This document shows positions 4,365-62,540 of a DNA stretch of 64,000 nt, piece after piece. The stretch's first letter is position 1; every line of letters begins with the position of its first letter. Made by a program: the position numbers and the translations under genes. The stretch is from a bacterium (GTDB lineage Bacteria > Patescibacteriota > Microgenomatia > UBA1400 > PJMF01): assembly GCA_017431625.1 (NCBI GenBank), contig JAFRKQ010000015.1, positions 17,608-81,607 on the forward strand. The letters are read 5' to 3'. The notes beneath the pieces are model-generated. The model saw only the letters and a list, made by a program, of their open reading frames with translations. It had not been told where the DNA came from and did not search any database.

Positions 4365-4904
4365 ATGGCAAAAATAACAAATAAACCAATAATGATACCG
4401 TCCGGAGTTACGGCGAGCGTAGAAAATGGTGAGGTGACGATCAAAGGTGCCAAGGGGCAACTGAAGGTCCAGCTTTTGCCAAACATTGACGTGGAGATTG
4501 ACGGTGATAAGTTGATTGTCCATCAAGGCAGTCAAGAAAAACAAACTAAAGCTTTTGTTGGCCTCATTAAAGCCTTGGTCCGTAATGCCATTGCCGGAGT
4601 AACCACTGGTTTTAGCAAAACGCTTAAGCTGGTCGGTACTGGTTACCGGGTACAGGCTCAGGGCAAAGGGATAAGTCTGGCGGTGGGTTTTTCTCACACA
4701 GTGGAGTTTATGCCTCCTGAGGGTGTTGAGCTCAAAGTGGAGGGTCAAGATACTATCATCGTCAGTGGCTTTGACAAACAACAAGTAGGACAGGTAGCAG
4801 CTAATATCCGCAAAGTACGACCACCAGAACCTTATAAAGGTAAAGGTATTCGCTACGTTGATGAGGTCGTCCGTCGTAAGCAGGGTAAGACAGCCGCGAA
4901 GTAA
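4365..4904 (+). CDS. rplF: 50S ribosomal protein L6
   Basis: 179 aa uL6 two-domain protein. Confidence 0.9.
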   Translation: MAKITNKPIMIPSGVTASVENGEVTIKGAKGQLKVQLLPNIDVEIDGDKLIVHQGSQEKQTKAFVGLIKALVRNAIAGVTTGFSKTLKLVGTGYRVQAQGKGISLAVGFSHTVEFMPPEGVELKVEGQDTIIVSGFDKQQVGQVAANIRKVRPPEPYKGKGIRYVDEVVRRKQGKTAAK

Positions 4905-4912
4905 GGATCAAG

Positions 4913-5281
4913 ATGACAACAGTTGCACATAATTTATCCAATAGACAACGTCGACTCAAAAGAATGCATCGTCGCGTCAAAGCGATAGCGAGTCGGCCAA
5001 AACTCGTGATCACGCGCACCAATCGCTATATAGATCTGCAAGTGATCGGTGAAAATGGCTATGTCCAAGCGAGTGAAAGTGACATCGCTTTGGTCAAAGC
5101 TGGTCAGCTGGATCGTTCACTCACTAAAACCGAGCGGGCGGCGGCTACGGGTAAAGCATTGGCGGCCAAACTTCAGGAGAAAAATATCAAGTGCTTGGCA
5201 GTAGATCGCGGTGCGTACAAATTTCATGGTCGAATAAAGGCCGCAGTAGAAGCAATCAGAGAAAATGGAATTGAGGCGTAA
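4913..5281 (+). CDS. rplR: 50S ribosomal protein L18
   Basis: 122 aa uL18. Confidence 0.85.
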   Translation: MTTVAHNLSNRQRRLKRMHRRVKAIASRPKLVITRTNRYIDLQVIGENGYVQASESDIALVKAGQLDRSLTKTERAAATGKALAAKLQEKNIKCLAVDRGAYKFHGRIKAAVEAIRENGIEA

Positions 5282-5282
5282 A

Positions 5283-6065
5283 ATGGCATTGACTAATAAT
5301 AATACGAATAACAGTCGTTCTCAAGAGGCGAGTGTTGCTGAAGAAAAAAAGTACGAAGAAAAGGTCGTCCAGGTATCGCGTGTGTCCAAAAAGACCAAGG
5401 GCGGTAATCAATTTGGTTTCTCGATCCTAGTTGTGGTCGGCGATAAGAAGGGACGAGTGGGTGTCGGTTTGGGCAAAGGCAAAGATGTCTTGTCCTCGAT
5501 CAAAAAAGCCGTCAAGAAAGCACGTAAAAATATGATCAGTGTGCCAATGGATGGTACTACTATCCCCTTTCCTGTGCGGGTTAAAAAAGGCGCGGCCAAG
5601 GTTTTGCTCAAACCCGCTCCCAAGGGTTCGGGCGTTATTGCTGGTGGTGCTGTCCGTAGTGTAGTGGAAGCGGCTGGCATTCGTGATCTTTCGGCGAAAA
5701 TTTTGGGCACCAATAATCAAGCCAGTAATGTTTATGCCACCTTTACGGCGCTCAAACAAATGGAAAAAATGGTAGAACTTAAGGGTATTAAACTGAAGTC
5801 CATTGTGGAAATCGAAGCTGAAGAAGCGAAGAAATTTGAGGAAGAAGCAGCCAAGGCAAAAGCAGCCGAAAAAGGCAAGCAAGAAGCTTCAAAAAAGAAT
5901 CTTAAGAACGGTCGCAGTGGTGATAAAGCCAAAAAGCCTGTCAAAGATAGTAAAGATAAAAAGGGTGCTAAGTCAGCTGCTGTCAAAAAAGCTGCTAAGC
6001 CAGCGGCTAAATCAGCTCCCAGCAAGGGTGAGCAAGCGACACCCGCAGCCGAGTCGACCAAGTAG
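5283..6065 (+). CDS. rpsE: 30S ribosomal protein S5 with ~95 aa Lys/Ala/Glu-rich C-terminal extension
   Basis: uS5 core (VSRVSKKTKGG..FGFSILVVVGD...GIRDLSAKILG) then low-complexity tail KKFEEEAAKAKAAEKGK...AAKSAPSKG; ATG 5283 directly after rplR stop. Confidence 0.9.
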   Translation: MALTNNNTNNSRSQEASVAEEKKYEEKVVQVSRVSKKTKGGNQFGFSILVVVGDKKGRVGVGLGKGKDVLSSIKKAVKKARKNMISVPMDGTTIPFPVRVKKGAAKVLLKPAPKGSGVIAGGAVRSVVEAAGIRDLSAKILGTNNQASNVYATFTALKQMEKMVELKGIKLKSIVEIEAEEAKKFEEEAAKAKAAEKGKQEASKKNLKNGRSGDKAKKPVKDSKDKKGAKSAAVKKAAKPAAKSAPSKGEQATPAAESTK

Positions 6066-6614: not shown

Positions 6615-7697
6615 ATGGAAATAACTATTTTGGTTTTGTTGATTTTGGTGATAGTTTTGCTGCTGCTCAATTTGCTTTTGACCTATGCTCTCAAGATGCG
6701 ACAACCGGACTTGGAAAAAACGCTTTCGCGCCAGCGCCGGGAGTTGACCCTCACACTTGAGTCTTTCGGTCAAGGCCAGGAACGTCAACTTCAGCATCTA
6801 ACAGCGATGACCGAAAAACGTCTTGAGTCCATGCGTCAAACTGTGGATGAAAAACTACAAACTTCTCTGGAACGCCGACTCAATGATTCTTTTCGCCAGG
6901 TATCTGAGCGGCTGGAAATGGTTTATAAAGGTTTGGGTGAAATGCAGACGCTGGCGGCCGGTGTCGGTGATCTCAAGAAAGTACTTACCAATGTCAAGGT
7001 CCGGGGTACGTGGGGTGAAGTCCAACTGGGCAATTTGTTGTCGCAGTTTTTGGCGCAAAGCGACTATACCGAAAACGTGGCTACCGTCCCTGGTAGTAGC
7101 AATCGGGTGGAATTTGCGATCAAACTTCCGAGCAAAAATAATGATCAAGACAATGTTTTATTACCTATTGATGCGAAATTTCCCTTAGAAGATTTTGAGC
7201 GTTTGCAATTGGCACAAGAGCAAGCTGACAAAAGTTTGATTGACATTGAGTCCAAGGCTTTGTATACGCGTTTGAAAAAATGCGCCAAAGATATTCACGA
7301 TAAGTACTTGTCGCCACCGAAGACCACAGATTTTGCGATTATGTATTTGCCGCTTGAAGGTCTGTATGCCCAAGTGAGTCAAAATGTCGCTTTGTGTCGT
7401 CAACTCCAACAAGATTATCGGGTGACTGTCATGGGACCCAATACCATTGCTGCTTTTTTGAATAGCCTTCAGTTGGGTTTTCGCACATTAACGATTGAAA
7501 AGCGCTCAGCCCAAGTGTGGCAGCTTTTGGGCGAGATCCAAACTGAGTTTGCTAAATTTGGACTCATTTTGCAAAAAACGCAAAAGAAATTGCAAGAAGC
7601 CAGCAACATCATCAGCGAGGCTCAAAGCAAATCAACCACAATTAATCGCAAACTTCAAAGTGTGGAAAATCGTGATTTACTCCAAGAGCCTGTGTAA
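6615..7697 (+). CDS. rmuC: DNA recombination protein RmuC
   Basis: N-terminal TM then coiled coil and RGTWGEVQL / IDAKFPLEDFERL motifs of the RmuC family. Confidence 0.8.
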   Translation: MEITILVLLILVIVLLLLNLLLTYALKMRQPDLEKTLSRQRRELTLTLESFGQGQERQLQHLTAMTEKRLESMRQTVDEKLQTSLERRLNDSFRQVSERLEMVYKGLGEMQTLAAGVGDLKKVLTNVKVRGTWGEVQLGNLLSQFLAQSDYTENVATVPGSSNRVEFAIKLPSKNNDQDNVLLPIDAKFPLEDFERLQLAQEQADKSLIDIESKALYTRLKKCAKDIHDKYLSPPKTTDFAIMYLPLEGLYAQVSQNVALCRQLQQDYRVTVMGPNTIAAFLNSLQLGFRTLTIEKRSAQVWQLLGEIQTEFAKFGLILQKTQKKLQEASNIISEAQSKSTTINRKLQSVENRDLLQEPV

Positions 7698-7790
7698 CAA
7701 AAATGCCATTTTTGTCACAAAAAACCAGATATGCGCGTTTAACACGCGTTTAACAAAAATGCGAAATTGTACATATTTTGTCTACATGTA
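7698..7790. repeat. Repeat element X (contains tandem GCGTTTAACA x2), copy 1
   Basis: ~85% identical to the reverse complement of 22826-22920. Confidence 0.6.
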
Positions 7791-7796
7791 AAAAAT

Positions 7797-7843
7797 GCCG
7801 AGCTCCGCGCGGAGCTCGGCAGTCCGCAGTTATTCGGTAAACT
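7797..7843. repeat. GC-rich palindromic element (family Z), short inverted copy; terminator-like after rmuC
   Basis: Perfect palindrome GCCGAGCTCCGCGCGGAGCTCGGC; its reverse complement aligns with 18307-18384 with an internal deletion. Confidence 0.6.
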
Positions 7844-7875: not shown

Positions 7876-8010
7876 GAAACAAATATTTAAGCTGGCTCAA
7901 ACAGCTCGCCCAGCAAATATTTAGCCGGGCGCTCAAACAGCGGCTCGCATGACATGGACGTCACGGCTCGCCAAACTCGCGCCAACGGCAAAAATATTTG
8001 CTATGGGCTC
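7876..8010. repeat. Repeat element Y (degenerate ~30-nt tandem units CAAATATTTAGCnGGnCTCAAACAGC...), copy 1
   Basis: Shares a 25-nt exact block AAATATTTAGCCGGGCGCTCAAACA and ~80% identity over ~105 nt with 22672-22790. Confidence 0.6.
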
Positions 8011-9933: not shown

Positions 9934-10554
9934 TTATTCACGGCAACAATCAAGCATTCTGTTGAGAGTTGCTCCTAATTTTTTCCAGGTACTGTCATGG
10001 TTTTTGGTTTCTTGGCTCGTGTCAGTGAGTGCTGAGGTGGCCACGGTGTCGATTTGGTCGGTATTGGTGGCCAGCTCCTCCTCTTTTTTGATGTCAGCCA
10101 GAAGGGCTTTTTTGTCTTGCTCGCTGAATTGACTACTGGTTTGGTTTTGATCAATGAGCTTGAGATTGAGCGCCCAAAAAAGATTGTAGAGATTGTAGGA
10201 CATCTCAAAAAGATGATAAGCGTGGTCTTTGTCATTGGCCATGGCTTTGGTGCCCACCTCCATCACCCGCATACTGGCGGCCAGGAGATGTTTGCTGGTA
10301 CACCAGACTTCTCCTTCATAGTCTTTGATGATTAATTTAAGCAATTCCTTGCGCATTTCACGGATTTGGGCGAGCATTTCAAAGTAACTAGTCTTGCCGG
10401 TTTTATTGGCGGTAAAAAATAAATGCTCTTCAATCGAGATTAAATTCATAATGCCAATGGACAAGTCTTCATCGGAGGAAAGATCAAGTTTGTGCCCTTT
10501 TTCGATTTTTTTGGCCTGTTCCATATACTCGTCAAGTTTTTTTTGATCAATCAT
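9934..10554 (-). CDS. Hypothetical protein (coiled-coil rich, acidic C-terminus)
   Basis: ORF with SD GAAGGA 7 nt before ATG 10554 and an extended -10 TGTGGTAAAAT upstream; no recognisable family. Confidence 0.5.
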   Translation of the reverse strand: MIDQKKLDEYMEQAKKIEKGHKLDLSSDEDLSIGIMNLISIEEHLFFTANKTGKTSYFEMLAQIREMRKELLKLIIKDYEGEVWCTSKHLLAASMRVMEVGTKAMANDKDHAYHLFEMSYNLYNLFWALNLKLIDQNQTSSQFSEQDKKALLADIKKEEELATNTDQIDTVATSALTDTSQETKNHDSTWKKLGATLNRMLDCCRE

Positions 10555-10654
10555 GGCGATCCTTCTAGTCACTTTTTTCTAATAGCTATTTTACCACACT
10601 TTTGTGACTTTTTACGTCAAAAAAAGGTGAAAATGGTTGACAAACACATTAATG

Positions 10655-10800
10655 ATATGGTGATTTAGATATTATAGGATGTTTACGCATTATAGGATAA
10701 AATTTTCCAGGTATGAAAACTAAAAATTATCCTATAATATAATATTCTGATTAAAATTAGTCTGGAGTTTCTTTTATATTATAGGATTAAAAATGCTAAT
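10655..10800. repeat. ATTATAGGAT/ATCCTATAAT box repeat element, copy 1
   Basis: ATTATAGGAT-N30(TTCCAGG)-ATCCTATAAT-N40(GTCTGGAG)-ATTATAGGAT; same architecture at 42575-42730, 50985-51150, 62415-62540. Confidence 0.7.
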
Positions 10801-10831
10801 TTCAAGTGCTAAGCGCCAGATGCTCTTTTTG

Positions 10832-10840
10832 TGATATAAT
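10832..10840 (+). promoter_or_regulatory. Extended -10 (TGaTATAAT) for RNase P RNA
   Basis: 7 nt upstream of the predicted P1 5' strand. Confidence 0.5.
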
Positions 10841-10846
10841 ACACCC

Positions 10847-11106
10847 ACGGTAAGGCGACTCCAGGACAACCGCCGGTATCGGTCAAGATACTGGAGGAAA
10901 GTCTGGACAGCGCAAGAGAGGCTAGGTACAGAGTCACAGAGACGAGCCGTTTGAGTACGGGTGCAACGAGATAATCCCTAGCTGCTGCAACCGCCAGGTT
11001 TGACCTTAATGGACCTCTTGCCTATCATGGTCATGATCCCGCGGGCATTAGATAGATGGTTGTCAACCAAACAGAATCCAGCTTACTCGGAGCCGACCTT
11101 GCCGTC
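10847..11106 (+). ncRNA. rnpB: RNase P RNA (bacterial type, reduced ~260 nt)
   Basis: P4 strands GGAAAGTCTGGAC (10895-10907) and ACAGAATCCAGCTTA (11071-11085), matching the universal GGAAAGUCCGG / ACAGAAxCCGGCUUA with compensatory CCGG->CTGG/CCAG changes; P1 CGGTAAGG/CCTTGCCG and P2 CGACTCC/GGAGCCG pairings. Confidence 0.55.
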
Positions 11107-12561
11107 GGGTAAAAACTGACTGTAATGCTCGACAAATCCTCGTCCGAGTCCCGGAATCACCTGTAGATCGGGTAGCTTTTGCCAAGGAATGATACTTAGA
11201 TATGACAGCGTGAGATCGGTAATAATAGTACTGGGAATGAGTTTTTGTCGGCGGGCCTGTAGTTGGCGCCACTGCTGCCACTGGTGCAGGTTTTGTTTCA
11301 CTTTTTGGGGATAATGAAAATGGTAGCCAAGACAATTATCACACAAACCACACTCAAAACCAGGACGGCGCTCGTCAAAATAAGCCAAGACAAAACGTTG
11401 TCGACAAGTACGGCACTCGAGAAACTTTTGCACTTGCACTAGTTTTTGGAAAAGAATTTTTTGTCGCTGGGGTGTGAGCGTGTGGTTGCCTTTGATAAAT
11501 TGCAAACTGATTTCCAGATCTTTGTGGGTGTAAAAGGCATAGCAACGCGCGAGCTGGCCATCGCGCCCACCACGACCAATTTCTTGAAAGTAGTTTTCCA
11601 AATTGCTGCTGATTTGCGCGTGAATGACAAAGCGTACGTGTGGTTGGTCAACACCCATACCAAAAGCATTAGTAGCGACAATCACGGGTGTTACTCCGGC
11701 GATGAATTCCTCCTGAATTTGCGCTCGAGCGTCTTTGTCCAAGCCACCGTGATAGACTTTGATGAGTTTTTCGGGACGCAAAAGCGCATTGAGTTTGTCG
11801 GCAATAAAAACTGCCTGTCGGCGAGTGAGCACGTAAATGATGCCAATTTCACCTTGATGTTGTTGGAGTACCCACAGGATCTTGAGTAGTTTGTCGTGTT
11901 CGTTAAAACAATGATTGACCATAATTTTGAGATTGTCGCGGGCAAATGATTGCTGGCTGTGGAGTGGCTGGCGCAAGCCGCAAAAGCGCACAATGTCTCG
12001 TTGCGCTTGGTGATTGGCCGTGGCTGTCAGGGCAATAATCGGTGGTCTGGTGTCGGGGAAAATCTGCTGCAAGATGCGGCCGATTTGCAAGTAATGGGGG
12101 CGAAAATCATGACCCCAAACGCTCACACAGTGAGCTTCATCGATAGCAATGGCACTAATTGGCGATTGTCGGCATTGAGCTTGGAAACTATTACTACTGA
12201 GAGTTTCGGGAGCAGTGTAGACAAATTGATACTCGCCGCGTTTAAATTTTTCCAGGCGTCTGGCTCGCTCCTGACTCGTCAAGGTACTATTAATAAAAGT
12301 AGCGCGTAAGTTTCTTTTTTGCAAATTGGTCACTTGGTCTTGCATCAGGGAAATGAGCGGGGAAATAATTAAGACGCTGCCGCCCAAATATAGCCCCGGG
12401 ATTTGAAAACACAGACTTTTTCCACCACCTGTGGGGAGAATTGCCAAAACATCACGACCCGTGCAGACAGCCTCAATGATTTCCAGCTGTCCGGGGCGGA
12501 AATGAGGGTAGCCGAAATGCTCCAGCAAGAGAGCTTCGAGTTGTATTGATAGCTGGGTCAT
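11083..12561 (-). CDS. recQ: ATP-dependent DNA helicase RecQ
   Basis: FGYPHFRPGQLEIIEAV...LPTGGGKSLCFQIP...DEAHCVSVWGHDFRP, RQC Zn-binding Cys cluster; leaderless (TATAAT 7 nt before ATG 12561). Confidence 0.85.
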   Translation of the reverse strand: MTQLSIQLEALLLEHFGYPHFRPGQLEIIEAVCTGRDVLAILPTGGGKSLCFQIPGLYLGGSVLIISPLISLMQDQVTNLQKRNLRATFINSTLTSQERARRLEKFKRGEYQFVYTAPETLSSNSFQAQCRQSPISAIAIDEAHCVSVWGHDFRPHYLQIGRILQQIFPDTRPPIIALTATANHQAQRDIVRFCGLRQPLHSQQSFARDNLKIMVNHCFNEHDKLLKILWVLQQHQGEIGIIYVLTRRQAVFIADKLNALLRPEKLIKVYHGGLDKDARAQIQEEFIAGVTPVIVATNAFGMGVDQPHVRFVIHAQISSNLENYFQEIGRGGRDGQLARCYAFYTHKDLEISLQFIKGNHTLTPQRQKILFQKLVQVQKFLECRTCRQRFVLAYFDERRPGFECGLCDNCLGYHFHYPQKVKQNLHQWQQWRQLQARRQKLIPSTIITDLTLSYLSIIPWQKLPDLQVIPGLGRGFVEHYSQFLPDGKVGSE

Positions 12562-12699
12562 GTTTTTGATTATACTGACAATGTTGTCAAATGATTTCGC
12601 CACTGAGGCCTTTTTACTGACAGTTTGCTGATAAAAATGCCTTGAAATCAATATTTATTTGTGATTGATATTTCGTCATTTTTGTACGCTTGGGGTGGC

Positions 12700-12729
12700 T
12701 TGACAAGTGGCCGGACTATTTGTTACAAT
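12700..12729 (+). promoter_or_regulatory. Sigma70-type promoter of the pilin operon (TTGACA-18-TACAAT), leaderless
   Basis: -35 TTGACA 12700-12705, -10 TACAAT 12724-12729, ATG 12737 seven nt downstream. Confidence 0.6.
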
Positions 12730-12736
12730 GGTTTTT

Positions 12737-13399
12737 ATGAAAAAACGCACCGCGTTTACACTGGTAGAGATGATGGTTATCGTCGCAGTTTTGGGGATTT
12801 TATCCACTTTTGGTTTTGCCAGCTACAGCCGTTTTGCCCAGCGTCTGGAGGTAGAAAACGCTGCTAAAGAGTTGATTACTTTTATTCGCCAAGTACAAGG
12901 GTATGCAAGGAATGGGGATCGAGGGAATAACGCTTTGGGTTCTGGTTGTAATGCTACTGTGTTTGATATTGCTAGCGATAACAGCAAATTACTTGGTTGG
13001 CGGATTGATTTAAAAGCAAATGAAGCCAATGGCTATCCGGTTTGTTGGACGAGTTCTAGCCCGCGAGTAGCGGATGAGACAGGCGGCAAGTCGTTAGATT
13101 TAACTACAATTAATTCAAGTATTAAGTTTTATTGTTCTGGATGGAGCACTTGCAGTAGTAGTACTAATTATTTTTTTGTAAAATCTATTTTTGGTGATAC
13201 CTGGTATCAACATGAATATACTAAAGGATCAATTGATACCACTGGTGTTGGTAATAAAAACAAAATTATTGTTGTTAGCGATGGCGAATTTTATTATCGT
13301 TTCCGGTTGTCAAATGGATCCATCACTAATGGTAGTTTCTGTGAAAAAGCACACTGCTTTGACAATGATCGTACTAATAGTTTAACTGCTGATGATTAA
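12737..13399 (+). CDS. Type IV pilin / pseudopilin (prepilin-type N-terminal cleavage/methylation domain)
   Basis: MKKRTA|FTLVEMMVIVAVLGIL class III signal (A at -1, E at +5); Cys-containing variable C-terminal domain. Confidence 0.7.
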   Translation: MKKRTAFTLVEMMVIVAVLGILSTFGFASYSRFAQRLEVENAAKELITFIRQVQGYARNGDRGNNALGSGCNATVFDIASDNSKLLGWRIDLKANEANGYPVCWTSSSPRVADETGGKSLDLTTINSSIKFYCSGWSTCSSSTNYFFVKSIFGDTWYQHEYTKGSIDTTGVGNKNKIIVVSDGEFYYRFRLSNGSITNGSFCEKAHCFDNDRTNSLTADD

Positions 13400-13940
13400 T
13401 ATGCCAAAACACAATCGATACCTTCACCATTTGCCTGCCACTTCTATCATTGAGCTGATGGTCTCGGCGGCTTTAATTGGCATGGTTTTAACAGCGCTCA
13501 CACTCAACATGGCGCGGACACAGCGCACTCTGGAGAATACTTTTTTACGTTCCAAGGCTACTGATATGGCCAATAGTTGTATGAATTATTTTCGGGCTGC
13601 CAGAGATAATAATGAGTGGCCAATTTTTTGTGATAGAGTTAAGAATGTTACAGTTAATTCTACTGGTTCTCCTCTTGGCGGTAATATCAATGCTAGTTCA
13701 AGCATTTTGAATCCAATTTGTCCGCAAGGTGCGTATGCTGGATCAAATTTTTATTTAAATCTCGCTAGGAGTGGGCGTAGTGGTTGCTCTAATATAGAGT
13801 GTTTTTGTAAAGGAAATCGTGATGAAGCGTATTTTAATCTACAAGTTATTGTACATTATCAGGATGCCATTGGTGTGGACAAATCTGTTACAGTGACCGA
13901 GCGTTTCTCTCGCGGTCAGCTTGATGCTGAATATAAATAA
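13392..13940 (+). CDS. Minor pilin-like protein (degenerate prepilin N-terminus)
   Basis: ..PA|TSIIELMVSAALIGMVL with Glu at +5; Cys-rich C-terminus; alternative start ATG 13401. Confidence 0.5.
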   Translation: MINMPKHNRYLHHLPATSIIELMVSAALIGMVLTALTLNMARTQRTLENTFLRSKATDMANSCMNYFRAARDNNEWPIFCDRVKNVTVNSTGSPLGGNINASSSILNPICPQGAYAGSNFYLNLARSGRSGCSNIECFCKGNRDEAYFNLQVIVHYQDAIGVDKSVTVTERFSRGQLDAEYK

Positions 13941-14038
13941 ACTATAGTAGTGCTTGTCGCGATTGTAATGTTGCCAAATGCCAGCGATTTGTGTTATAAT
14001 GAACTTGAAAATTGACAACAATAATTGAGAAAGATAGT

Positions 14039-15475
14039 ATGGCGCAAACAGTAATGGGTAAAATAAATGATTGGGGTGGCCTAGATGAGGACGATCCCAT
14101 TATTGATAATTCGGCGCTGACAATGGAAGAGCTCACAGAAGTGTCGGTATCGGGGCTCGATGACGAACCCACAGCGGTGTCGGTTGGTGCGCCAGAGACA
14201 CCAGCGCCCGTGACTTTTCCGCATGTGCCGGCGGCAGCCACTGTGGTCTCCAGTGAACCGGTGGTATTACAACCGGTGGCAGATGAAGTACCACTGACGG
14301 CTGATAGTGCTACCACTGATTGGCAACCAGATGTGGTCCCGGCGGCGGCGACTGTTGATATGTCACCGGTGACGACCGTGACGCAGGCAGAATTGGCTGC
14401 CGCCTCAGCGATGGCAGCGGGCAGCGAGCTGCCAAATCTCAAGACGCAAGAATCAGCACCCGTGGTGGCTAGTGAGCGTGAGACAACCGAAACAGTGAAA
14501 AAGGTGTCAGCAAAAGTGGCGACTAAATCATTGCTGACCCGTTGGCGCGGCACTAAATTCAAGCCGGCCAAAGAGACTGACAAGGTGAAAAAAACGGCAC
14601 CCAAGCGCGCCCCGAAACAGTCAAAAGCTCGCACTGGAAAAAATGAATGGCAGCTGGTGACACTGGCTTTGTTGTTGGTGGTGGGGGTAGCTGGTGGGAG
14701 TTTCTGGTATCGCCGTCGCGGCGGTCAAGTGGCCGGCATCAAAAAAGAATTGGTCGCTGATTACCGTTTGGGTGCGGGTTATATTGCTACTACTGGCGTG
14801 TGTACGCCGGTTATTGACCCGAGCGTGCGTGCGAGTGTGGATGATTTTGTTTCGATTATTTCTGGTGATGGCTATATTGATGAAAGTGTTACGGGTGAGT
14901 TACGAACGCAGTTTGATTTTTTTCAGGAGCACGCTTTGGGTACAGGCGCCAGACACTGCTTTGCTTTGGAGTACTGTCATAATGATTTTGCCAATAATCT
15001 CCCCTTTGTACTTGCTTATGCTAGGCGCGCTTACGTGGATACTCATTATGGCAATGCCGGCGTGGGAGGTGTTGGCGGTCAGTGGGTAGCGGCGGGGCAA
15101 TTGCGTCAAGATGTGACTCAGCTTTTTGGTGTGAGTGAGGTTGATGTTAGCCTTTTCCCGGTCACCAATGGGACGATAAATGATGTTTACAATGCTGCCG
15201 ATGATTTATTCTTGATCCCTGCAGATGTGAATATCAGTGGACCTTATCACTATGAGCTGGAAAAAATACGGGCAAACGCCGCTACCAAGCAGCGAGTGTT
15301 TGTAGCCAAGATGGTCACTAGCGATAGCGCTTGTCAAGTAGTGATTAATGATGATCATTGCAATTGTCCGCAGACGCGTTATTATTTGGTACAAGATATT
15401 AATCCGGCTACTGGTGAGTATGTTTATACTCACGAGTATGTACAAGTTACAGGTGAGCGGCAAAAGGTAGATTGA
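14039..15475 (+). CDS. Single-pass membrane protein, paralog A of a tandem triplet (acidic disordered N-terminus, TM, 6-Cys C-terminal domain)
   Basis: TM WQLVTLALLLVVGVAGG; C-terminal motifs LEYCHNDF and CQVVINDDHCNCPQTRYYLV shared with the next two genes; alternative TTG start 14012. Confidence 0.6.
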   Translation: MAQTVMGKINDWGGLDEDDPIIDNSALTMEELTEVSVSGLDDEPTAVSVGAPETPAPVTFPHVPAAATVVSSEPVVLQPVADEVPLTADSATTDWQPDVVPAAATVDMSPVTTVTQAELAAASAMAAGSELPNLKTQESAPVVASERETTETVKKVSAKVATKSLLTRWRGTKFKPAKETDKVKKTAPKRAPKQSKARTGKNEWQLVTLALLLVVGVAGGSFWYRRRGGQVAGIKKELVADYRLGAGYIATTGVCTPVIDPSVRASVDDFVSIISGDGYIDESVTGELRTQFDFFQEHALGTGARHCFALEYCHNDFANNLPFVLAYARRAYVDTHYGNAGVGGVGGQWVAAGQLRQDVTQLFGVSEVDVSLFPVTNGTINDVYNAADDLFLIPADVNISGPYHYELEKIRANAATKQRVFVAKMVTSDSACQVVINDDHCNCPQTRYYLVQDINPATGEYVYTHEYVQVTGERQKVD

Positions 15476-15476
15476 A

Positions 15477-16604
15477 ATGTCAATACCCAAAGGCTATCCG
15501 ACGCCTCGTGTGCCTTCACCAACCAAAAGTGAAGACTGGCAAATTGGTGGACAACAAGATGCGGCGGGCAAAGTGCAGATGATTTTTGCGGGACAATCAC
15601 CAGCTTTCCCGGATTTAGTGCCCGCCAGCGAGCTGCCTGCGTCCAGCGCGTCTACTCCTACTCCACCACCGACACAGACACCGAGTCCCTCGGCGCATAA
15701 AATTCGCCGACGTCCGGACAAAATGAAAGGCCCGGGCTTTAATTGGCGAGGACTACATTGGCCATTGTATATTTCAGCGCTTGCAGTCGTGATTTTGTTG
15801 GCTCACGTACTGATGCGCTTTGCTAGTATGAGTGGCTTGCGCGATAATTTGGGTCACGAGTATCTGAATCAAGATTTGACACGTTTGGGAGCACCGCCTG
15901 TTGTTCCTTGTTTGGCTAGCGAAGAGGTGACTCTGCGTGAAAGCTTGGACGAGTTGGCGGCGACTTATGAGGCGACCTATTTTCGCGAGGAGCCAACCGT
16001 TGATGACCGAGCGCTTTTGGAGCGTTTCCTTAAACCAGCTCGAGTGGCTCAAGCGGTGGATTGTCTTGGCGGTGTCTATTGCCGGCAAGATTTTACCAAT
16101 CCGACGCTGCAAAAGTCAGTAATTCGGCATCTTTTGGCTTATGATTTGTCTTTGGTGCCAGGGCATAGTGAACCAGCCGGAACTTTTATGGTACAGCTGT
16201 ACTCGATGTTTGGTACCAAGCAAGTGGATTTGGCCACCGTACCTGATTTGGATTATCAAGCAGCTGATGAGACTTTTATTGTGCCCACACCTGTGGATGC
16301 GCCCACGCCTGCTTATGACTATACTTTGGAAGCTATTTGGATCAGTCCTAGTGAGGATGAAGCTGTATATCAAGCGCTTATGACGCCGACGCCGTCGTGT
16401 ACCTTGTCACTGCACGGCCAATGTTCTTGTCCACTGGCTCGTTACTATTTGGTTTTGCGCTATGATCCCGAAAGTGATCACTGGATGCACGCTTATCATT
16501 TTGTCCGTCGTCTTGGAGGAATTGATAATTTGCAGACTGGCGAACAAGTGACTGCGCCCGCGGCTTCAGACTCGACAAATGTTTTAGAAAGTGATAAACT
16601 ATAA
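15477..16604 (+). CDS. Single-pass membrane protein, paralog B
   Basis: TM LHWPLYISALAVVILLAHVL; CLGGVYCRQDF and CTLSLHGQCSCPLARYYLV motifs. Confidence 0.6.
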   Translation: MSIPKGYPTPRVPSPTKSEDWQIGGQQDAAGKVQMIFAGQSPAFPDLVPASELPASSASTPTPPPTQTPSPSAHKIRRRPDKMKGPGFNWRGLHWPLYISALAVVILLAHVLMRFASMSGLRDNLGHEYLNQDLTRLGAPPVVPCLASEEVTLRESLDELAATYEATYFREEPTVDDRALLERFLKPARVAQAVDCLGGVYCRQDFTNPTLQKSVIRHLLAYDLSLVPGHSEPAGTFMVQLYSMFGTKQVDLATVPDLDYQAADETFIVPTPVDAPTPAYDYTLEAIWISPSEDEAVYQALMTPTPSCTLSLHGQCSCPLARYYLVLRYDPESDHWMHAYHFVRRLGGIDNLQTGEQVTAPAASDSTNVLESDKL

Positions 16605-16630
16605 AAACAAAATTGCAAAGAAAGTAGCTT

Positions 16631-18253
16631 ATGCCAACAACCAATATTAATAATAGTCCTAATGCCAATTTGTCCACGCCTACTCCTATCGTGCCGGCGG
16701 GTTCTGCCCCCCAACCAGCAGCACCTGTGGGTGAGATTCCGACGCTCAATCCGGCACTGGTGAGTACTGGTCTACCCACTTTGGGTCAAAGTCTTTTGAT
16801 CTCTACCACTCCTCCACCCGCTGCCCCCACGCCGGCCCCTGCCGCTGCATTGAGTCAAACACTACCAACTACTGCGCCTGTTGTCCCGCCTTCATCGCCA
16901 GCTCCAGTGGCTACCCCTACTCCTTCTACTCCACTAGTCCCGCCAGCTCCCGCACCGGCGCCAGCTAGTCCAATTGCCCCCACCCCAACACCAGCGACAG
17001 TACCCACTCATCCGGTAGGTCTGGCCACACCTTCTGTGGGTACGCCACCGACCGCGGCACCACCAGCAACGGCTTCTGTTCCTACGCCGGGATTGCCACC
17101 AACACCAACACCAACACCGATGTCTGTACCAGCAGTGTCTTCAACACCAGCTCCCGCACCGGCGCCAGCTGCTACTCCCGCTCCAGTAGGCCCAGTCTCG
17201 GCTCCTAGTGTGCCGCCTATGCCAGGAACTGGTACAGGTACTAATACCTCGGGGAGTGTGCCGCCAGTGATCCCTTCAGTAGCACCCACCGCTCCTGGTG
17301 CTGAGCCCAAGCCAGTAACTCCTATTGCAGAAACGCCAGCCGCTAAGCCCGAGAAGAAAACTGATCTGACGATGATTATTTTGGCGGTCGTTTTGGTGAT
17401 TCTTGTAGTGGTCGCGGGTGTGTTGTGGTGGATGAATGCCAATGGCAAAAGTCTTTTTGGTGGTCAGGTGGCAACGGTGGTCACTCCTGAGCCTGTGGTC
17501 GCGCCTATTACTACCCCAGAGCCGGTCGCTGACGCTTCACCCGGTGGCTCGCGTGAGGAATTGGTGGCGATTGATGTCGATGATCTTTGTTATGTCAATC
17601 CCGACTCTTTGGGCCAACAAAAAGATGTGGAAGAGTTTGTCACTTGGGTCAATAATTATTTTACTGACGATTTGGAAAACAGTGAGTATTACCAAAATCT
17701 TTTTAACTATTATATGGAACGAGCCATCATGGCACCACCACTTTGTGACTCACATCAGTTGTATTGCCGCGCTGCTTTCAGTGAGCGGCCAGATTTTGTG
17801 GCTCAGTTTAGTCATTTTGGTGAACAATGGGAGCGACAAACTACCGAGTCAAAAACGCTCACGGGCCAGTCAATTCGCGATCGGGCGTTGATTGATTTTA
17901 ATATGCCTGATTTGGTCTTGGATGAGAATACTGGTCGTGGCAGTCTAGCTGGTAATGGCTGGAAATACAATGCCGATCAAGATATATTGCTTTCTTTTGG
18001 TGAGTATACTTTGCCCCAGCAAGATTACACTTATCGGTTTGTTAAGGGTATGCAATTGGCGGCTACCCAAGAAGTGGTGCTGATCGGACAAGGGGTGGCA
18101 ACACAAAATTGCAAGGAGGAAAATAACTGTGTTTGCGAAGCTTCACAAATATATTTGTATTTACAAAAAGGGCCAACCGGCGAGCTTTATTATTCTAATC
18201 TCTTTATTGAGCCATTGGTAGGCAAAACTGCTGAGGTAGATGCTGATTTATAA
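16631..18253 (+). CDS. Single-pass membrane protein, paralog C (240-aa Pro/Ala/Thr-rich N-terminus)
   Basis: TM LTMIILAVVLVILVVVAGVLWW; LCDSHQLYCRAAF and NCKEENNCVCEASQIYLYL motifs. Confidence 0.6.
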   Translation: MPTTNINNSPNANLSTPTPIVPAGSAPQPAAPVGEIPTLNPALVSTGLPTLGQSLLISTTPPPAAPTPAPAAALSQTLPTTAPVVPPSSPAPVATPTPSTPLVPPAPAPAPASPIAPTPTPATVPTHPVGLATPSVGTPPTAAPPATASVPTPGLPPTPTPTPMSVPAVSSTPAPAPAPAATPAPVGPVSAPSVPPMPGTGTGTNTSGSVPPVIPSVAPTAPGAEPKPVTPIAETPAAKPEKKTDLTMIILAVVLVILVVVAGVLWWMNANGKSLFGGQVATVVTPEPVVAPITTPEPVADASPGGSREELVAIDVDDLCYVNPDSLGQQKDVEEFVTWVNNYFTDDLENSEYYQNLFNYYMERAIMAPPLCDSHQLYCRAAFSERPDFVAQFSHFGEQWERQTTESKTLTGQSIRDRALIDFNMPDLVLDENTGRGSLAGNGWKYNADQDILLSFGEYTLPQQDYTYRFVKGMQLAATQEVVLIGQGVATQNCKEENNCVCEASQIYLYLQKGPTGELYYSNLFIEPLVGKTAEVDADL

Positions 18254-18306: not shown

Positions 18307-18384
18307 TTACCGAAACACTCGCGACTGCCGAGCTGTGCACACAGCTGTGCAGTCGTGTGCGGAGCTCCGCGCGGAGCTCCGCAC
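18307..18384. repeat. GC-rich palindromic element (family Z), full copy; bidirectional terminator between convergent genes
   Basis: TTACCGAAACACTC...GCTGTGCACACAGC...GTGCGGAGCTCCGCGCGGAGCTCCGCAC. Confidence 0.65.
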
Positions 18385-22537: not shown

Positions 22538-22671
22538 CAGTTTTATTTTTTTTGGGTTAAAAACTCATTTGGGAATTATTGTAGTTTGTTATCAAATAAT
22601 CACTGCCGAGTTTTGTACACGTTGATACAGTTTGTGTTGACAGATAAAACGTACCATGCTAACGCCGCTCA

Positions 22672-22790
22672 CCCGGACAAATATTTAGCCGGGCGCTCAA
22701 ACAATGACTGCGCGTGCTCGCCTTCGGCGCCACGCTCGTCAAACTCGCGCCAGCGGTCAAAACATTTGCTTCGGGCTCACAGCTTATATT
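22672..22790. repeat. Repeat element Y, copy 2
   Basis: See 7876-8010. Confidence 0.6.
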
Positions 22791-22825
22791 TTTTCATCAT
22801 TTAAATAATAGATAAAATGTGTACA

Positions 22826-22920
22826 ATTTAAGCATTTTGTTAAACACGTGTTAAACGCTCACATCTGGTTTTTAGTGACAGAAATGGTGTTTTTGTAAAA
22901 TCAATGGCAACGCATTTTCA
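22826..22920. repeat. Repeat element X, copy 2 (inverted)
   Basis: Reverse complement ~85% identical to 7698-7790 incl. G(C/T)GTTTAACA x2. Confidence 0.6.
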
Positions 22921-42458: not shown

Positions 42459-42494
42459 ATGGCTCCTTTCTGTAATAATTTTTAATTACCTGTG

Positions 42495-42545
42495 ATTATA
42501 GCACAATTTTTAGCAATGTCAACACCCAATTGCTAGTAGTGCTAA
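42495..42545. promoter_or_regulatory. hsp20 promoter (TTGACA-16-TATAAT, minus) overlapped by CIRCE-like inverted repeat
   Basis: TTAGCAATG-N9-AATTGCTAG (42510-42536) followed by AGTGCTAA (42538-42545). Confidence 0.55.
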
Positions 42546-42574
42546 AAAAAACTAATTTTTTCTTGATTGATGGG

Positions 42575-42730
42575 AAAAAATTGTCTATTTTAGTGAATTA
42601 TCCTATAATTTATGAGATTGTCCAGACTAATTTAAAACGGAATAATATATTATAGGATAAATAGTAACTTTTTTGCCTGGAAAAATATGGCAAAACTTGG
42701 TTAAAATCCTATAATAATTAAAAATTATGG
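42575..42730. repeat. ATTATAGGAT/ATCCTATAAT box repeat element, copy 2
   Basis: ATCCTATAAT-N40(GTCCAGAC)-ATTATAGGAT-N47(GCCTGGAAAAA)-ATCCTATAAT. Confidence 0.7.
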
Positions 42731-42795
42731 AGTAATTATCAATTTGATATAAAAACTGGCGGGCGAAAAAGACAAAGTCGTGATATAATAGGGGC

Positions 42796-44544
42796 ATGAA
42801 GCAAAAACTGACGAGTTTTTTGGCCTGGTTTGATGACTATTTTTTGTTGATAGCTAGTATTTTTTTGCTGTTTTTTATTCCTTTGTGGCCCAAAATTCCC
42901 TTGGCTGATATTATTCCAGGCTATATTGTCCGCTTGCGCCTGGAAGATATTTTCGTTTTTGCGATTTTTGTGATTTACTTGATCCAAGTGGCTCGAGGTA
43001 AGGTTGCCTGGCGGATGCCCACTTGGCAGTTAATTTTTGGTTACGTAGCAGTAGGTTTAATGTCGATATTGACAGGAATTTTTGTCATTCATACAATTCC
43101 GTTTCTCCTACCAGAGATGGGCAGCTTGGGTGACGTTATCGCCGCCGGTGTGCATGTGGCAAAGTCATTTTTGCACTGGGCACGTTACATTGAGTATTTT
43201 TTCTTGGCTTTTTTATTCTATTCAGCTATCAACAAGCGCGTGGCCCTCAAAACAATCGCAGCGTGCATGTTATTGACGGTGGTAGCGATCACAGTCTACG
43301 GTTGGGGGCAAAAGTATTGCTATTGGCCCGTTTATTCAACGATGAACCGAGAATTTGCCAAGGGTATGAAGCTGGTGCTTACTCCTCATGCTCGGGTACA
43401 ATCAACTTTTGGTGGCCATTATGATTTTGCGGCCTATTTGGTATTACTTTTGCCTTTTACTCTCATGATTGCCAAAAAGGCCCGTAATATCTGGCCAAAG
43501 TATCCTCGTTTGTTGACTGGCTTGGCATGGTTGGCTCATTTTGCGGGAGTCTGGAGCTTGATTATTTCGGCAGCCAGAACCTCAATTATTGCTTATTTTA
43601 TAGGTACAGTTTTGGTTTTTACTCTTGATGTTTTTATGAGTAAACGGCCTCGTCGCCGTCAGGTATGGGCTTGGTGTAGTCAACAAGTGGCTTATTTTGC
43701 TTTGGTGGGCGTGCTTGTTTTTGGTTGGGGACAAGACATGATTGAGCGTTTTGAACACACACTCGACTCAATTCCTTGGGTACATGATACGTATCACACC
43801 GCCAACCGTTGGCGCAAAGAATTACCTTATAAATTGGGCTGGAAGGAATGGGAACAGCCAGAGGGAACAGTAGCTGTTGTGGTTGATGATTTTGGTAATA
43901 ATTCGGTGCTCACGCCAACTGACACACAACCGCAACCAGTCGCGCCATCACCTTCATCGGAACCCACCAGTGACAATCGTCCAGTGGATGTTTATGAGGA
44001 TATTCCGGATATTAAGATAGCAGTGGATGCTTCGGGTAACGCTTATACTTATGAAGCTACCCGGACTTGGTCGGTCAATGCAGAAAAATACGGTTTGTCG
44101 ATGGCCATCCGTTTTGATACTCTCTGGCCCAATGCCATTCGTGGTTTTAGTCGCAATCCCCTTTTGGGGAGTGGCTATGGTACCCTGACTAAGGGTGAGT
44201 CACTCTCGGTTTTTACCGAGGCGGATAGCACTGATTGCAATTATTTGCGCACTTTGGGTGAAACAGGACTTTTGGGCTTTATTTGTTTTTATGGTGCCGT
44301 TGTTTGGGCCATTATTATTGCTTGGCAGCAATGTCGTCTGGCTGATAATTTGCTACAGATGATCAATTTGGCTTATTTGGGTGCAGCGGTGGGTATCTTG
44401 GTGAACGCTTTGTATATCGATGTTTTCGCGGCTTCTAAAGTAGCGTTTACTTTCTGGATGTTGACTGGTATCTTTTGGGCATCACAAAAGAAGGCTATTA
44501 GAGCCATTGAAATAACTCAAGATGAGAAAAAAGTTGACGCTTAA
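42796..44544 (+). CDS. O-antigen ligase/Wzy_C-family polytopic membrane protein
   Basis: ~10 TM helices, large external loop ending in DCNYLRTLGETGLLGF (O-antigen-ligase H/N-x-x-L...E-x-G motif); leaderless. Confidence 0.6.
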   Translation: MKQKLTSFLAWFDDYFLLIASIFLLFFIPLWPKIPLADIIPGYIVRLRLEDIFVFAIFVIYLIQVARGKVAWRMPTWQLIFGYVAVGLMSILTGIFVIHTIPFLLPEMGSLGDVIAAGVHVAKSFLHWARYIEYFFLAFLFYSAINKRVALKTIAACMLLTVVAITVYGWGQKYCYWPVYSTMNREFAKGMKLVLTPHARVQSTFGGHYDFAAYLVLLLPFTLMIAKKARNIWPKYPRLLTGLAWLAHFAGVWSLIISAARTSIIAYFIGTVLVFTLDVFMSKRPRRRQVWAWCSQQVAYFALVGVLVFGWGQDMIERFEHTLDSIPWVHDTYHTANRWRKELPYKLGWKEWEQPEGTVAVVVDDFGNNSVLTPTDTQPQPVAPSPSSEPTSDNRPVDVYEDIPDIKIAVDASGNAYTYEATRTWSVNAEKYGLSMAIRFDTLWPNAIRGFSRNPLLGSGYGTLTKGESLSVFTEADSTDCNYLRTLGETGLLGFICFYGAVVWAIIIAWQQCRLADNLLQMINLAYLGAAVGILVNALYIDVFAASKVAFTFWMLTGIFWASQKKAIRAIEITQDEKKVDA

Positions 44545-46081
44545 ACGCTCTCACTGGTTTTTGGCATTTATTCTTAGTCTGGCTTTTGCCGTTCGGCTTT
44601 ATCGACTTACTTATCCTTTGCTTGATTGGCATTCTTTTCGTCAAGCTGATACTGCTTCGGTCACGCGTGAGTTTGTCAAACATCGCTATCCTATTTGGCG
44701 GCCACATTATCATGATCTTGGTGATATCCAAAGTGGTTTGGACAATTTGGCTGGTGATCGGATGGTAGAATTTCCTTTAGTGAATTATTTGCTGGCGTGT
44801 TGGCTGCGAGTTTTTCCTACTTGGGATTTGGTAGTGACCTCGCGTTTGGCAGCCGCGCTGGCCTCCACTGGCTCATGCTGGTGTCTTTATTGGCTGGTAA
44901 AAAAGCTCGTATCTAGCAACAGTGATGATGACTCGCAAGTGGAATGGCTAGCACAACTTTCGGCCTTAACGATGGCAATTCTGCCTTATTCTATTTATTA
45001 TGGTCGAGTCATCTTGCCAGAACCTTTTCAGGTTTTTTTTGGCTTGTTAGCGCTTGTGAGTTTTGTGAGCTATTTGCGAGAGCATCGCTGGTCATCTTGG
45101 GGTTTGACGGTGGTGAGTTTGCTGACTGCTTTGCTCATCAAACCGACAACAGTTTTTTGGGGACCTTTATTTTTACTTTTGGCTTGGCAAAAAGATGGTT
45201 GGCATTGTCTCAAACGCGGCGATTTGTGGCTTCTGGCTTTGGTGGCGGTTTTGCCTTTGGGGTGGTGGCGGTTATATATTCGCCAGTTTCCGGCGGGGAT
45301 TCCGGCGAGTGACTGGTTGTTTAACGGACCAATTGCTGGTGTGGCTCCACGTTGGCGGCCGATGTGGTGGCGCTGGCTTTTTTACGAACGTTTGACCAAG
45401 GATTGGCTGGGTTGGTTGGGAGCCATGTGGCTGATTTTGGGATTGTATCCTCTATCGGTGTTTCACCGAAAAACTCACGTCTCTTGGCGACAGCTTGATA
45501 TTTTTGTTTATTGTTGGTTGGCACTTGATTTTGTTTATCTGAGTGTTTTTGCTCGTGGTAATATTCAACATGATTATTATCAATATCTTTTATTGCCAGC
45601 GGTAGCTGTGTTGGTAGGTCGTGGGGTGGCAATTTTTGTCAGTTGGACCCAGCGTTTTTGGCCATGGCGAAGTTTAACGATAGTGCTAGCGGTAGTTATC
45701 AGTGCTGGTGCTTGGTGTTTGGCTTGGCAGCGCGTGGGTGGCTATTTTAATGTCAATAATTGGGCTCAAGTACGGATTGGTCATCAAGCAGATTTGCTGC
45801 TACCAAGTGATGCCTTAGTGATCGCTCATGCTTATGATGCTGATACTAGTTTTCTTTTTCAAACCAATCGTTGCGGTTGGTCTACAGGGTTGGAGTTGGA
45901 GGATAAAATTACCAAAGGTGCACATTTTTTTGTGGGCACTGATACTGATGATTTATATCACCATTTGCTTGACAATTATCAGCTTTTGGCGCAAAATGAG
46001 GATGGCTTTATTTTTGATTTGACCGCCAGTAGTGCAGGACAGCTAACAGCGACGGCAAGTGGACAAGAAAGACAACCATGA
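44522..46081 (+). CDS. ArnT/PMT-like GT-C fold membrane glycosyltransferase
   Basis: Polytopic; N-terminal LRLYRLTYP...FRQADTA loop typical of lipid-carrier-dependent glycosyltransferases. Confidence 0.55.
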   Translation: MRKKLTLKRSHWFLAFILSLAFAVRLYRLTYPLLDWHSFRQADTASVTREFVKHRYPIWRPHYHDLGDIQSGLDNLAGDRMVEFPLVNYLLACWLRVFPTWDLVVTSRLAAALASTGSCWCLYWLVKKLVSSNSDDDSQVEWLAQLSALTMAILPYSIYYGRVILPEPFQVFFGLLALVSFVSYLREHRWSSWGLTVVSLLTALLIKPTTVFWGPLFLLLAWQKDGWHCLKRGDLWLLALVAVLPLGWWRLYIRQFPAGIPASDWLFNGPIAGVAPRWRPMWWRWLFYERLTKDWLGWLGAMWLILGLYPLSVFHRKTHVSWRQLDIFVYCWLALDFVYLSVFARGNIQHDYYQYLLLPAVAVLVGRGVAIFVSWTQRFWPWRSLTIVLAVVISAGAWCLAWQRVGGYFNVNNWAQVRIGHQADLLLPSDALVIAHAYDADTSFLFQTNRCGWSTGLELEDKITKGAHFFVGTDTDDLYHHLLDNYQLLAQNEDGFIFDLTASSAGQLTATASGQERQP

Positions 46082-48151: not shown

Positions 48152-48227
48152 ACCGAAACACTGAGGACTGCATAGCTCCGCACACATCTCGGCAGTCGCT
48201 TACACAGCTCCGCGCCGAGCTCGGCAG
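48151..48227. repeat. GC-rich palindromic element (family Z) copy; terminator-like after GT2 gene
   Basis: AACCGAAACACT...CAGCTCCGCGCCGAGCTCGGCAG. Confidence 0.6.
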
Positions 48228-50984: not shown

Positions 50985-51150
50985 TTCGGGTGTTATTTAT
51001 ATTATAAGTCCGAAACTTTTAATATTATAGGATTTTAAGCCATTATAGCTCATAATTTCCAGGCGAAAATTTGCTGAAAGTCCTATAAGATATTTTTACG
51101 TTCGGAAAAAGTCTGGATGATTATTAATATTATAGGATATATTTGTATAC
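50985..51150. repeat. ATTATAGGAT/ATCCTATAAT box repeat element, copy 3
   Basis: ATTATAGGAT...TTCCAGGCGAAAAT...GTCCTATAAG...AGTCTGGAT...ATTATAGGAT. Confidence 0.65.
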
Positions 51151-62393: not shown

Positions 62394-62414
62394 TGCTGGC
62401 TCACTAAGACTTTT

Positions 62415-62540
62415 TATCTTATAGGATTTTAACCCTTTTTTTGTCAAAATCTCCAGGCAGAAAAATTTTATTTAATCCTATAATATATGTTATCGATTTA
62501 AAACCAGGCATGAAATTAAAATTATATAGGATAATATTGT
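62415..62540. repeat. ATTATAGGAT/ATCCTATAAT box repeat element, copy 4
   Basis: TTATAGGAT-N47(CTCCAGGCAGAAAAA)-ATCCTATAAT-N36(AAACCAGGCATGAAA)-ATATAGGAT. Confidence 0.7.

Follow-up and report, generated by a model that had tools for sequence, protein, structure and literature searches.

A 64,000-nucleotide stretch of DNA from a Patescibacteria MAG of goat gut (hereafter the window) carries four copies of a single AT-rich, non-coding element of 115–117 bp, in which three short boxes follow one another in the order reverse-forward-reverse (R1, F, R2). With its direct ends and its non-palindromic unit, this element fits no known family strictly. We consider it, with a probability of about 50%, to be a non-autonomous mosaic repeat of the REP/BIME/MITE kind whose boxes would be recognised by a trans-acting protein and whose promoter potential would be incidental.

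Exact matches to the box and its complement (ATTATAGGAT/ATCCTATAAT) were found 10 times in the window; shuffling with the dinucleotides preserved predicted 0.08, and a count of 10 was reached in none of 100 shuffled sequences. All 10 lie inside four intergenic segments that a previous sequence-only reading had singled out as an ordered, non-chance repeat family. This sequence ranks first among the 10-mers of the window, ATTATACCAC from housekeeping promoters being less frequent (n = 8), and no solitary box and no box in coding DNA was detected by exact match in the 64 kb. Allowing one mismatch only added position 62418 (CTTATAGGAT) and a chance match in a coding region at 26184. With the degenerate boxes at 62418, 51080 (GTCCTATAAG) and 62521–62532 (ATTATA[TA]GGAT), the total comes to approximately 13, as had been claimed. 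A profile HMM built from the copies (nhmmer) matched the window four times, at the same four segments and nowhere else, and MAFFT aligned these segments colinearly once the second was reverse-complemented, recovering the box-spacer-box order and confirming the claim of an ordered family. The third copy was also reproduced, colinear and at 99.8–99.9% identity, in independent metagenome assemblies (L069, L002, and L003) derived from the same strain, and is thus no assembly artefact.

Table 1. Positions of the four element copies (w1–w4) and of their parts in the window, with the intergenic context of each copy.
Feature	Position	Strand	Basis or detail	Context
Copy w1, full R1-A-F-B-R2, 78% AT	10666..10788	+	nhmmer 78 bits, MAFFT	Divergent: start of unannotated ORF 9934-10555(-) / promoter of reduced RNase P RNA gene
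w1 box R1 (ATTATAGGAT on +)	10671..10680	-	exact match	
w1 extra internal box, in A spacer	10689..10698	-	exact match, alignment	
w1 CCAGG core	10707..10711	+	26 nt after R1, 17 nt before F	
w1 box F (ATCCTATAAT)	10729..10738	+	exact match	
w1 B-core GTCTGGA	10760..10766	+	11 nt before R2	
w1 box R2	10778..10787	-	exact match	
Copy w2, full, reverse orientation	42599..42720	-	nhmmer 95.6 bits, MAFFT	Divergent: hsp20 promoter / Wzy_C-PMT_2-glycosyltransferase operon promoter
w2 box R2	42600..42609	+	exact match	
w2 B-core GTCTGGA	42621..42627	-		
w2 box F	42649..42658	-	exact match	
w2 CCAGG core	42676..42680	-		
w2 box R1	42706..42715	+	exact match	
Copy w3, full	51019..51139	+	nhmmer 92.1 bits, MAFFT, reproduced in L069/L002/L003	Tandem: pyk 3' end / mannose-6-P isomerase (PMI) start
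w3 box R1	51024..51033	-	exact match	
w3 CCAGG core	51059..51063	+		
w3 box F	51080..51089	+	degenerate (GTCCTATAAG)	
w3 B-core GTCTGGA	51111..51117	+		
w3 box R2	51129..51138	-	exact match	
Copy w4, variant	62413..62532	+	nhmmer 77.4 bits, MAFFT	Convergent: glf 3' end / tRNA-Glu 3' end
w4 box R1	62418..62427	-	one mismatch (CTTATAGGAT)	
w4 CCAGG core	62453..62457	+		
w4 box F	62475..62484	+	exact match	
w4 second CCAGG	62504..62508	+	at usual B-core position	
w4 box R2	62521..62532	-	TA insertion (ATTATA-TA-GGAT)	

The geometry of the element was established from seven full copies, the four of the window and three (g1–g3) of RGIG2560, a distant MAG from goat jejunum. R1 (ATTATAGGAT), usually followed by TTTAAC, is separated by 25–26 nt from CCAGG, which lies 16–17 nt before F (ATCCTATAAT), itself followed by ATAT; 36–39 nt further lies R2 (ATTATAGGAT), and the distance from R1 to R2 is ~106 bp, or roughly ten helical turns. 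The box itself is 10–12 bp long (ATATTATAGGAT and its complement), AT-rich and devoid of self-complementarity, and always contains a perfect TATAAT. The spacer leading from R to F (module A, 46–48 nt, TTCCAGGC) invariably consists of a T-run, CCAGGC and an A-run, whereas the spacer leading from F to R (module B, 36–39 nt) reads TTAGTCTGGA, with its GTCTGGA core, in three of the four window copies and contains CCTCGAG in RGIG2560. Copy w4 is a variant in which an A-like spacer with a second CCAGG replaces the B spacer, w1 has an extra box within module A that aligns with a partial ATTATAGC of w3, and w2 is reversed relative to the three others. Pairwise local alignments begin 2–10 nt before R1 and stop at R2, or just past F if the B modules differ, indicating that the element is bounded by R1 and R2; the outer limits of homology fall at R1 (−5 nt) and R2 (+0–2 nt). 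The two termini are therefore direct repeats, with their inverted partner F in the centre. The elements contain 73–78% A+T, versus 55% for the window, their ORFs are trivial, and no coding potential was found in them. The sequence-only reading had described boxes alternating in orientation and separated by 30–47 bp spacers, each with a short core. The alternation and the cores were indeed found, but the boxes form one three-box unit rather than a loose array, with spacers of the lengths given above; the spacers of 8 nt and 30 nt in the first segment arise from the extra internal box at 10689.

Pairwise identity among the copies is 56–78%. The columns of the three boxes and of CCAGG are 95% identical, versus 54% for all other columns and 32% for random expectation, a contrast that is partly circular because the motif columns were picked after alignment and decayed copies escape detection. 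Modules A and B nevertheless keep their lengths, and the element its 115–117 bp, despite ~46% substitution in the spacers; that the lengths hardly vary is, independently of this contrast, a sign that the geometry is constrained. Non-motif columns are 57% identical within a genome and 52% between genomes, the former being barely above the latter. The copies are old and diverged, and no recent burst is apparent. On the other hand, the species-specific B spacers (GTCTGGA in the window, CCTCGAG in RGIG2560) imply propagation within each genome.

Motif conservation and the scarcity of indels are explained by purifying selection in place, and hence by a host function, no less well than by selfish spread. 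According to such an explanation, the copies would be binding-site cassettes maintained by the host, i.e., operator or architectural sites for a chromosomal DNA-binding protein such as a regulator, a nucleoid protein or a gyrase-like wrapper, which selection would keep for the regulation or insulation of adjacent genes, mobility being irrelevant or ancient. The contrast between motif and other columns, the constant length, boxes that are invariant between two species with divergent proteins, and a within-genome identity close to that between genomes, suggestive of old constrained copies, all argue for it, as does the proximity of three of the four window copies to genes for cell-envelope glycans. 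However, the distribution described below is patchy, with two orthologous sites empty, and the copies are randomly oriented and stand at no consistent distance from the closest promoter (~25 to 112 nt). Moreover, two of the seven copies (w4 and g1) lie between convergent 3' ends and the R1 side of g3 adjoins a gene 3' end, where there is nothing to regulate, and the genes flanking the RGIG2560 copies have no functional relation to those flanking the window copies. We regard this explanation as possible although rather unlikely; it stays alive because the copies are old and their motifs and spacing tightly conserved. A related reading, which we find unlikely, is a host-maintained nucleoprotein site peculiar to a clade of gut Patescibacteria, whose −10-like boxes and CCAGG, held at fixed helical phasing, would be bound by a dedicated protein or by the RNA polymerase holoenzyme. 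Such a site might insulate or co-regulate its neighbours, notably surface-glycan genes, or mark DNA for uptake by a pilus/ComEC system. It would be a cis-element of a novel type, in bacteria for which hardly any regulators are known.

The window copies occupy divergent (w1, w2), tandem (w3), and convergent (w4) intergenic sites in either orientation, and both orientation and gene context look random. The earlier view that they are not a simple promoter motif is in agreement with these contexts. The pyk gene adjoining w3 (MBQ6449724.1) has its named relatives in Patescibacteria/Pacebacteria, at identities of at most 57%. The glycan-related neighbours are the Wzy_C/PMT_2/GT4/GT2 operon (42796–48151), PMI (49920–50897), and glf, encoding UDP-galactopyranose mutase (61149–62393); the probability of such adjacency by chance, ~0.02, is a rough hand estimate made post hoc, and the pattern is absent in RGIG2560. 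Next to w1, a reduced RNase P RNA gene with several helices deleted was located at 10854–11101 (+), preceded by TGTGATATAAT at ~10830–10840. It was missed by the default Rfam scan because its score of 89.3 bits is below the gathering score of 100. The longest ORF called for recQ (11083–12651, −) extends into the 3' end of this RNA gene, and the start of recQ is thus probably further in.

Outside the window, a scan of 185,579 species-representative genomes with the pattern R-N30-55-F returned 60 loci, which is about the number expected by chance. The true members among them were two loci of RGIG2560 (L048 and L059), and the only other relevant locus was L007, nearly all the remaining ones being chance matches or unrelated repeats. 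The three full copies of RGIG2560 have the same order and spacing as in the window; its proteins are 38–75% identical to those of the window, but the boxes and the CCAGG core are nevertheless identical. These copies lie directly between a gene stop and the 3' end of tRNA-Val, upstream of pheS, and beside an ORF of 524 aa with a by-eye likeness to a phospholipase D-type enzyme. The window regions syntenic with the tRNA-Val and pheS loci carry no copy there, and no orthologous copy common to the window and RGIG2560 was found. A solitary ATCCTATAAT is located in RGIG2560 14 nt past the pyk stop (L067, 4949–4958) in the same orientation to pyk as box R2 of w3, and may be the remnant of an orthologous copy.

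Closer relatives (L064, L065, and L087; 88–89% pyk identity) have empty sites at two of the window loci. Their pyk-PMI spacer measures 89–96 nt, versus 350 nt in the window, and their hsp20-Wzy spacer 135 nt, versus 337 nt; alignment is good across the promoters on either side, and the element sits in the extra DNA of the window. The comparison of presence and absence among relatives that the sequence-only reading had proposed thus gave two empty orthologous sites, with copies at other sites in RGIG2560. In the genome of L064 (JAZQJV01), the modules occur once, rearranged as nested palindromes between rnpA and gyrB (L007, 1950–2150). No copy was found in eight other related loci (~100 kb). A metagenome scan with a three-motif pattern produced three matches, all due to chance, two scans of viral contigs and blastn searches against phages and plasmids returned nothing related, and literature searches on the box sequence or on repeats of CPR bacteria yielded neither this motif nor any repeat comparable to it.

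The same comparisons provided several separate observations. RmuC-Metallophos-GPD stands beside the NifU/Suf cluster in L064 and L065, but ~50 kb away from it in the window (6.5–10 and 59.5–62.5 kb), and glf and tRNA-Glu are absent from the corresponding position in these relatives. A relative with 75% pyk identity (L084) has no boxes but possesses its own intergenic repeat, AAATTTTAGTCGAGA, in five copies (4890–4975, 5565–5630, 7080–7100), with a likeness to the element's B-core (TTAGTCTGGA in the window, TTACTCGAGG in RGIG2560); module B may thus exist independently of the boxes. The high-copy tandem TAGGATT(A/T) octamers of the Chitinispirillales MAG Nx346_bin10 (L005, L015, L037, L038, L050, L053, and L055), which happen to hold ATTATAGGATT/AATCCTATAAT as inverted ends around cores of 40–55 nt, were rejected as a separate family, unrelated to the element.

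Indifference to context and orientation, empty orthologous sites, the use of other sites in a distant co-resident species, species-specific B modules, and reshuffling of the modules in a third lineage (JAZQJV01) make a non-autonomous mosaic repeat the most likely explanation, REP/BIME/MITE-type repeats being known to behave in this way (PMC3184786, PMC3116915, PMC10969869). In this reading, a repeat of ~116 bp has been gained and lost in the intergenic DNA of ruminant-gut Patescibacteria independently of the neighbouring genes. We infer that the boxes and CCAGG would be the recognition sites of a putative trans-acting DNA-binding protein, most likely an enzyme that copies or moves the element and is encoded elsewhere in the genome, and the fixed geometry would reflect a nucleoprotein complex that assembles on each copy. 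The earlier proposal of arrays of binding sites for a DNA-binding protein would accord with how strongly motifs and spacing are conserved. Since each box holds a perfect TATAAT, the copies could incidentally offer −10 elements to their neighbours. Pfam detected no domain of a transposase (Y1 included), a RAYT, or a recombinase in those window ORFs that were scanned; the ORFs neighbouring copies at other loci included no mobilising enzyme, and no protein family common to the neighbours of the copies was found. A clear target-site duplication was not found either: TTTTTA flanks the 207-nt insertion at the hsp20 site relative to L064, but this insertion is longer than the element and its flanks are AT-rich, and the match may be due to chance.

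The −10-like boxes also raise the question of a portable promoter cassette, made of a divergent sigma-70 pair with TGGAAA-N18-TAAAAT-CC-TATAAT directed leftward on the R1 side and F directed the opposite way. Apart from the TATAAT of every box, a promoter scan detected TGGAAA/TGGAGA-18-TAAAAT in w2, w3, and w4 and ATGGCA-17-TATAAT in w2, with the same geometry in g1 and g3; R1 faces the start of the adjacent gene in four of the seven copies, and functional promoters are known in Correia elements and other MITEs (PMC10969869; PMC3184786). However, the genuine promoters of this DNA, of which there are ~25 in the window, have an extended −10 element, (T/C)GTG(G/A)TATAAT, sometimes with TTGACA, whereas the boxes carry TCC in place of TGn and their −35 matches are inconsistent. 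Genes next to the element retain a canonical promoter of their own, located between it and their start codon, R1 faces gene 3' ends in the three other copies, and promoter-like counts are mostly near those of shuffled sequences. A promoter cassette is thus improbable as the reason for the existence of the element, although TGGAAA-N18-TAAAAT-CC-TATAAT, on the strand complementary to R1, could in some copies drive weak outward transcription. The genuine promoters commonly lie 6–10 nt before ATG, e.g., at 42781–42798, 50907–50895 (−), 20679–20662 (−), 55178 (−), and 61196 (−), implying many leaderless mRNAs. The hsp20 promoter, TTGACA-16-TGTGCTATAAT, with TTTTTAGCACTACTAGCA upstream (42459–42560), is nearly identical to positions 19713–19849 of L064, a relative at ~73% nucleotide identity; it may represent an operator for the heat-shock response, conserved between the two and similar to one half of a CIRCE site.

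A small structured RNA had also been proposed, and it is true that F can pair with either R1 or R2 in mutually exclusive stems of 10–12 bp, perfectly complementary in all copies, as might be expected of an sRNA, an attenuator or a bidirectional terminator. Some folds reach z-scores of about −2.3 to −3.0, and two copies are located at convergent gene ends. Nevertheless, single-sequence z-scores ranged from −0.8 to −3.0, with values of only −0.8 to −1.1 on some strands, the inner spacer stems differ among copies, and the sole consensus structure obtained with RNAalifold is the R1:F stem of the invariant boxes, in which 0 of 12 pairs covary. The stems are AU-rich with loops of 39–47 nt and no adjacent U-tract, in contrast to the terminators of this genome, which are GC-rich hairpins such as that at 51199–51228 after pyk, and three of the seven copies lie between divergent promoters. 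Rfam gave matches at chance level only, none reaching the gathering score of a family. These analyses gave the RNA proposal no support, and we consider a terminator or RNA gene quite improbable.

By analogy with the inverted pairs of Neisseria DUS, the 10–12-mer could also be a DNA-uptake signal for a type IV pilus/ComEC competence system of episymbionts. It is the most over-represented 10-mer of the window and identical in three gut Patescibacteria lineages, its boxes stand in inverted pairs, the window contains a pilin-like gene cluster (N_methyl motif, 12707–18253), and natural competence is described as demonstrated in Saccharibacteria (PMC10187176). However, uptake signals of the DUS/USS type are dense throughout a genome, genes included, whereas the window boxes are confined to four composite elements in 64 kb; in addition, close relatives have no such motif, and neither the CCAGG core nor the fixed three-box geometry would be explained. 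An uptake function is therefore very improbable. The cluster itself (+ strand), probably a module for a type IV pilus or a pseudopilin, opens with an ORF whose N-terminus carries a prepilin-type methylation motif; the four large ORFs behind it have no Pfam match.

Other candidates were discarded. CCWGG is not depleted (50 CCAGG versus 50 expected), arguing against a restriction-modification site. None of the look-alikes of sigma-54, CodY, DnaA-box, or CIRCE sites fits when compared by eye and by spacing, and no DnaA-box cluster was found near L007 or the copies. An invertible promoter is unlikely, as the intervals between inverted boxes are only 39–47 bp and three independent assemblies of w3 are colinear.

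Two further repeats were observed in the window. The first consists of G+C-rich perfect or near-perfect palindromes, TGCCGAGCTCCGCGCGGAGCTCGGCA, at 7796–7821, 18358–18383, and 48201–48226, together with a 75-nt repeat (18309–18383 versus 48152–48226, 77% identity), located downstream of genes; this family looks REP-like or terminator-like. The other, which contains GTTTAACACGCGTTTAAC, comprises an 88-nt inverted pair (7697–7784 versus 22809–22896, 86.5% identical) and a 113-nt direct match (7904–8010 versus 22667–22778, 78%), found downstream of RmuC and next to tRNA-Val.

Patescibacteria (CPR) have tiny, streamlined genomes that are generally regarded as poor in repeats and mobile DNA, and to our knowledge their cis-regulatory DNA is almost unexplored. 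The element is a modest but real addition to the repeats of a group thought to be poor in them, and represents a familiar class of repeat in a new form rather than a new principle. Identical boxes in genomes with such divergent proteins, combined with gain and loss among relatives, point to either a mobilisation system or a DNA-binding factor of gut CPR that has gone unrecognised. In metagenomes of the ruminant gut, this lineage could be traced by the 10-mer and by the 116-bp profile, the copies flag sites of possible promoter or terminator rewiring, and the invariant box offers a bait for finding the protein that reads it, with ATATTATAGGATTTTAAC and TTTCCAGGC as oligonucleotide sequences. 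The value of the element would rise if a dedicated host protein proved to bind the boxes, or with the discovery of a new mobilising enzyme.

MITE-like was the nearest of the identities proposed by the sequence-only reading. The element is small (<~300 bp), non-coding, and multi-copy (115–117 bp; four copies in the window and three in RGIG2560), it occurs in varied contexts, and it shows insertion polymorphism, the pyk-PMI and hsp20-Wzy sites being empty in L064, L065, and L087. However, a MITE has terminal inverted repeats, and the direct termini R1/R2, with no clear target duplication or transposase found, place the element outside the strict definition.

The element also resembles enterobacterial BIMEs, which are clusters of REP/PU units. 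Both have a short unit in alternating orientation with two conserved, orientation-dependent linkers (A between R and F, B between F and R, w4 being the exception), both are strictly extragenic and found in any intergenic context, and in both the modules are reshuffled and the motifs conserved far above the linkers. BIMEs serve as binding sites for IHF, gyrase, and Pol I and influence how stable mRNAs are (PMC3184786), illustrating that a mobile repeat and a host function need not be mutually exclusive. In contrast, a REP is a G+C-rich imperfect palindrome of ~35 nt, whereas the unit described here is an AT-rich, non-palindromic TATAAT box of 10–12 nt that is not PU-like; furthermore, no RAYT gene was seen, there are four copies per 64 kb, and the host belongs to the Patescibacteria.

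REPINs, i.e., REP doublets mobilised by RAYT, likewise combine short inverted motifs with a spacer of constant length and form long-lived, diverged populations within a genome, and they require no target-site duplication (PMC3116915; PMC3337134). The inverted arrangement with a conserved spacer was present in seven of seven copies, though as a triplet whose two outer boxes are direct. Unlike the imperfect, usually G+C-rich palindrome of 20–40 nt of a REP, the box forms no hairpin, and no RAYT (Y1) was found in the sequence searched.

Finally, the element is similar to the Correia (CREE/NEMIS) elements of Neisseria and to bacterial MITEs of their kind (RUP, ERIC) in being ~100–160 bp long, AT-rich, intergenic, non-coding, present or absent at orthologous sites, and often upstream of genes. 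Correia elements are associated with a TA duplication, and the box TATAGGATTTTAAC may, by eye, resemble the Correia end. Ends of the Correia type carry sigma-70-like promoter elements, and their transcripts can form long hairpins (PMC10969869; PMC3184786). Unlike Correia elements, which are bounded by terminal inverted repeats of 26 bp, the element described here has direct termini, and its copies are far more diverged.
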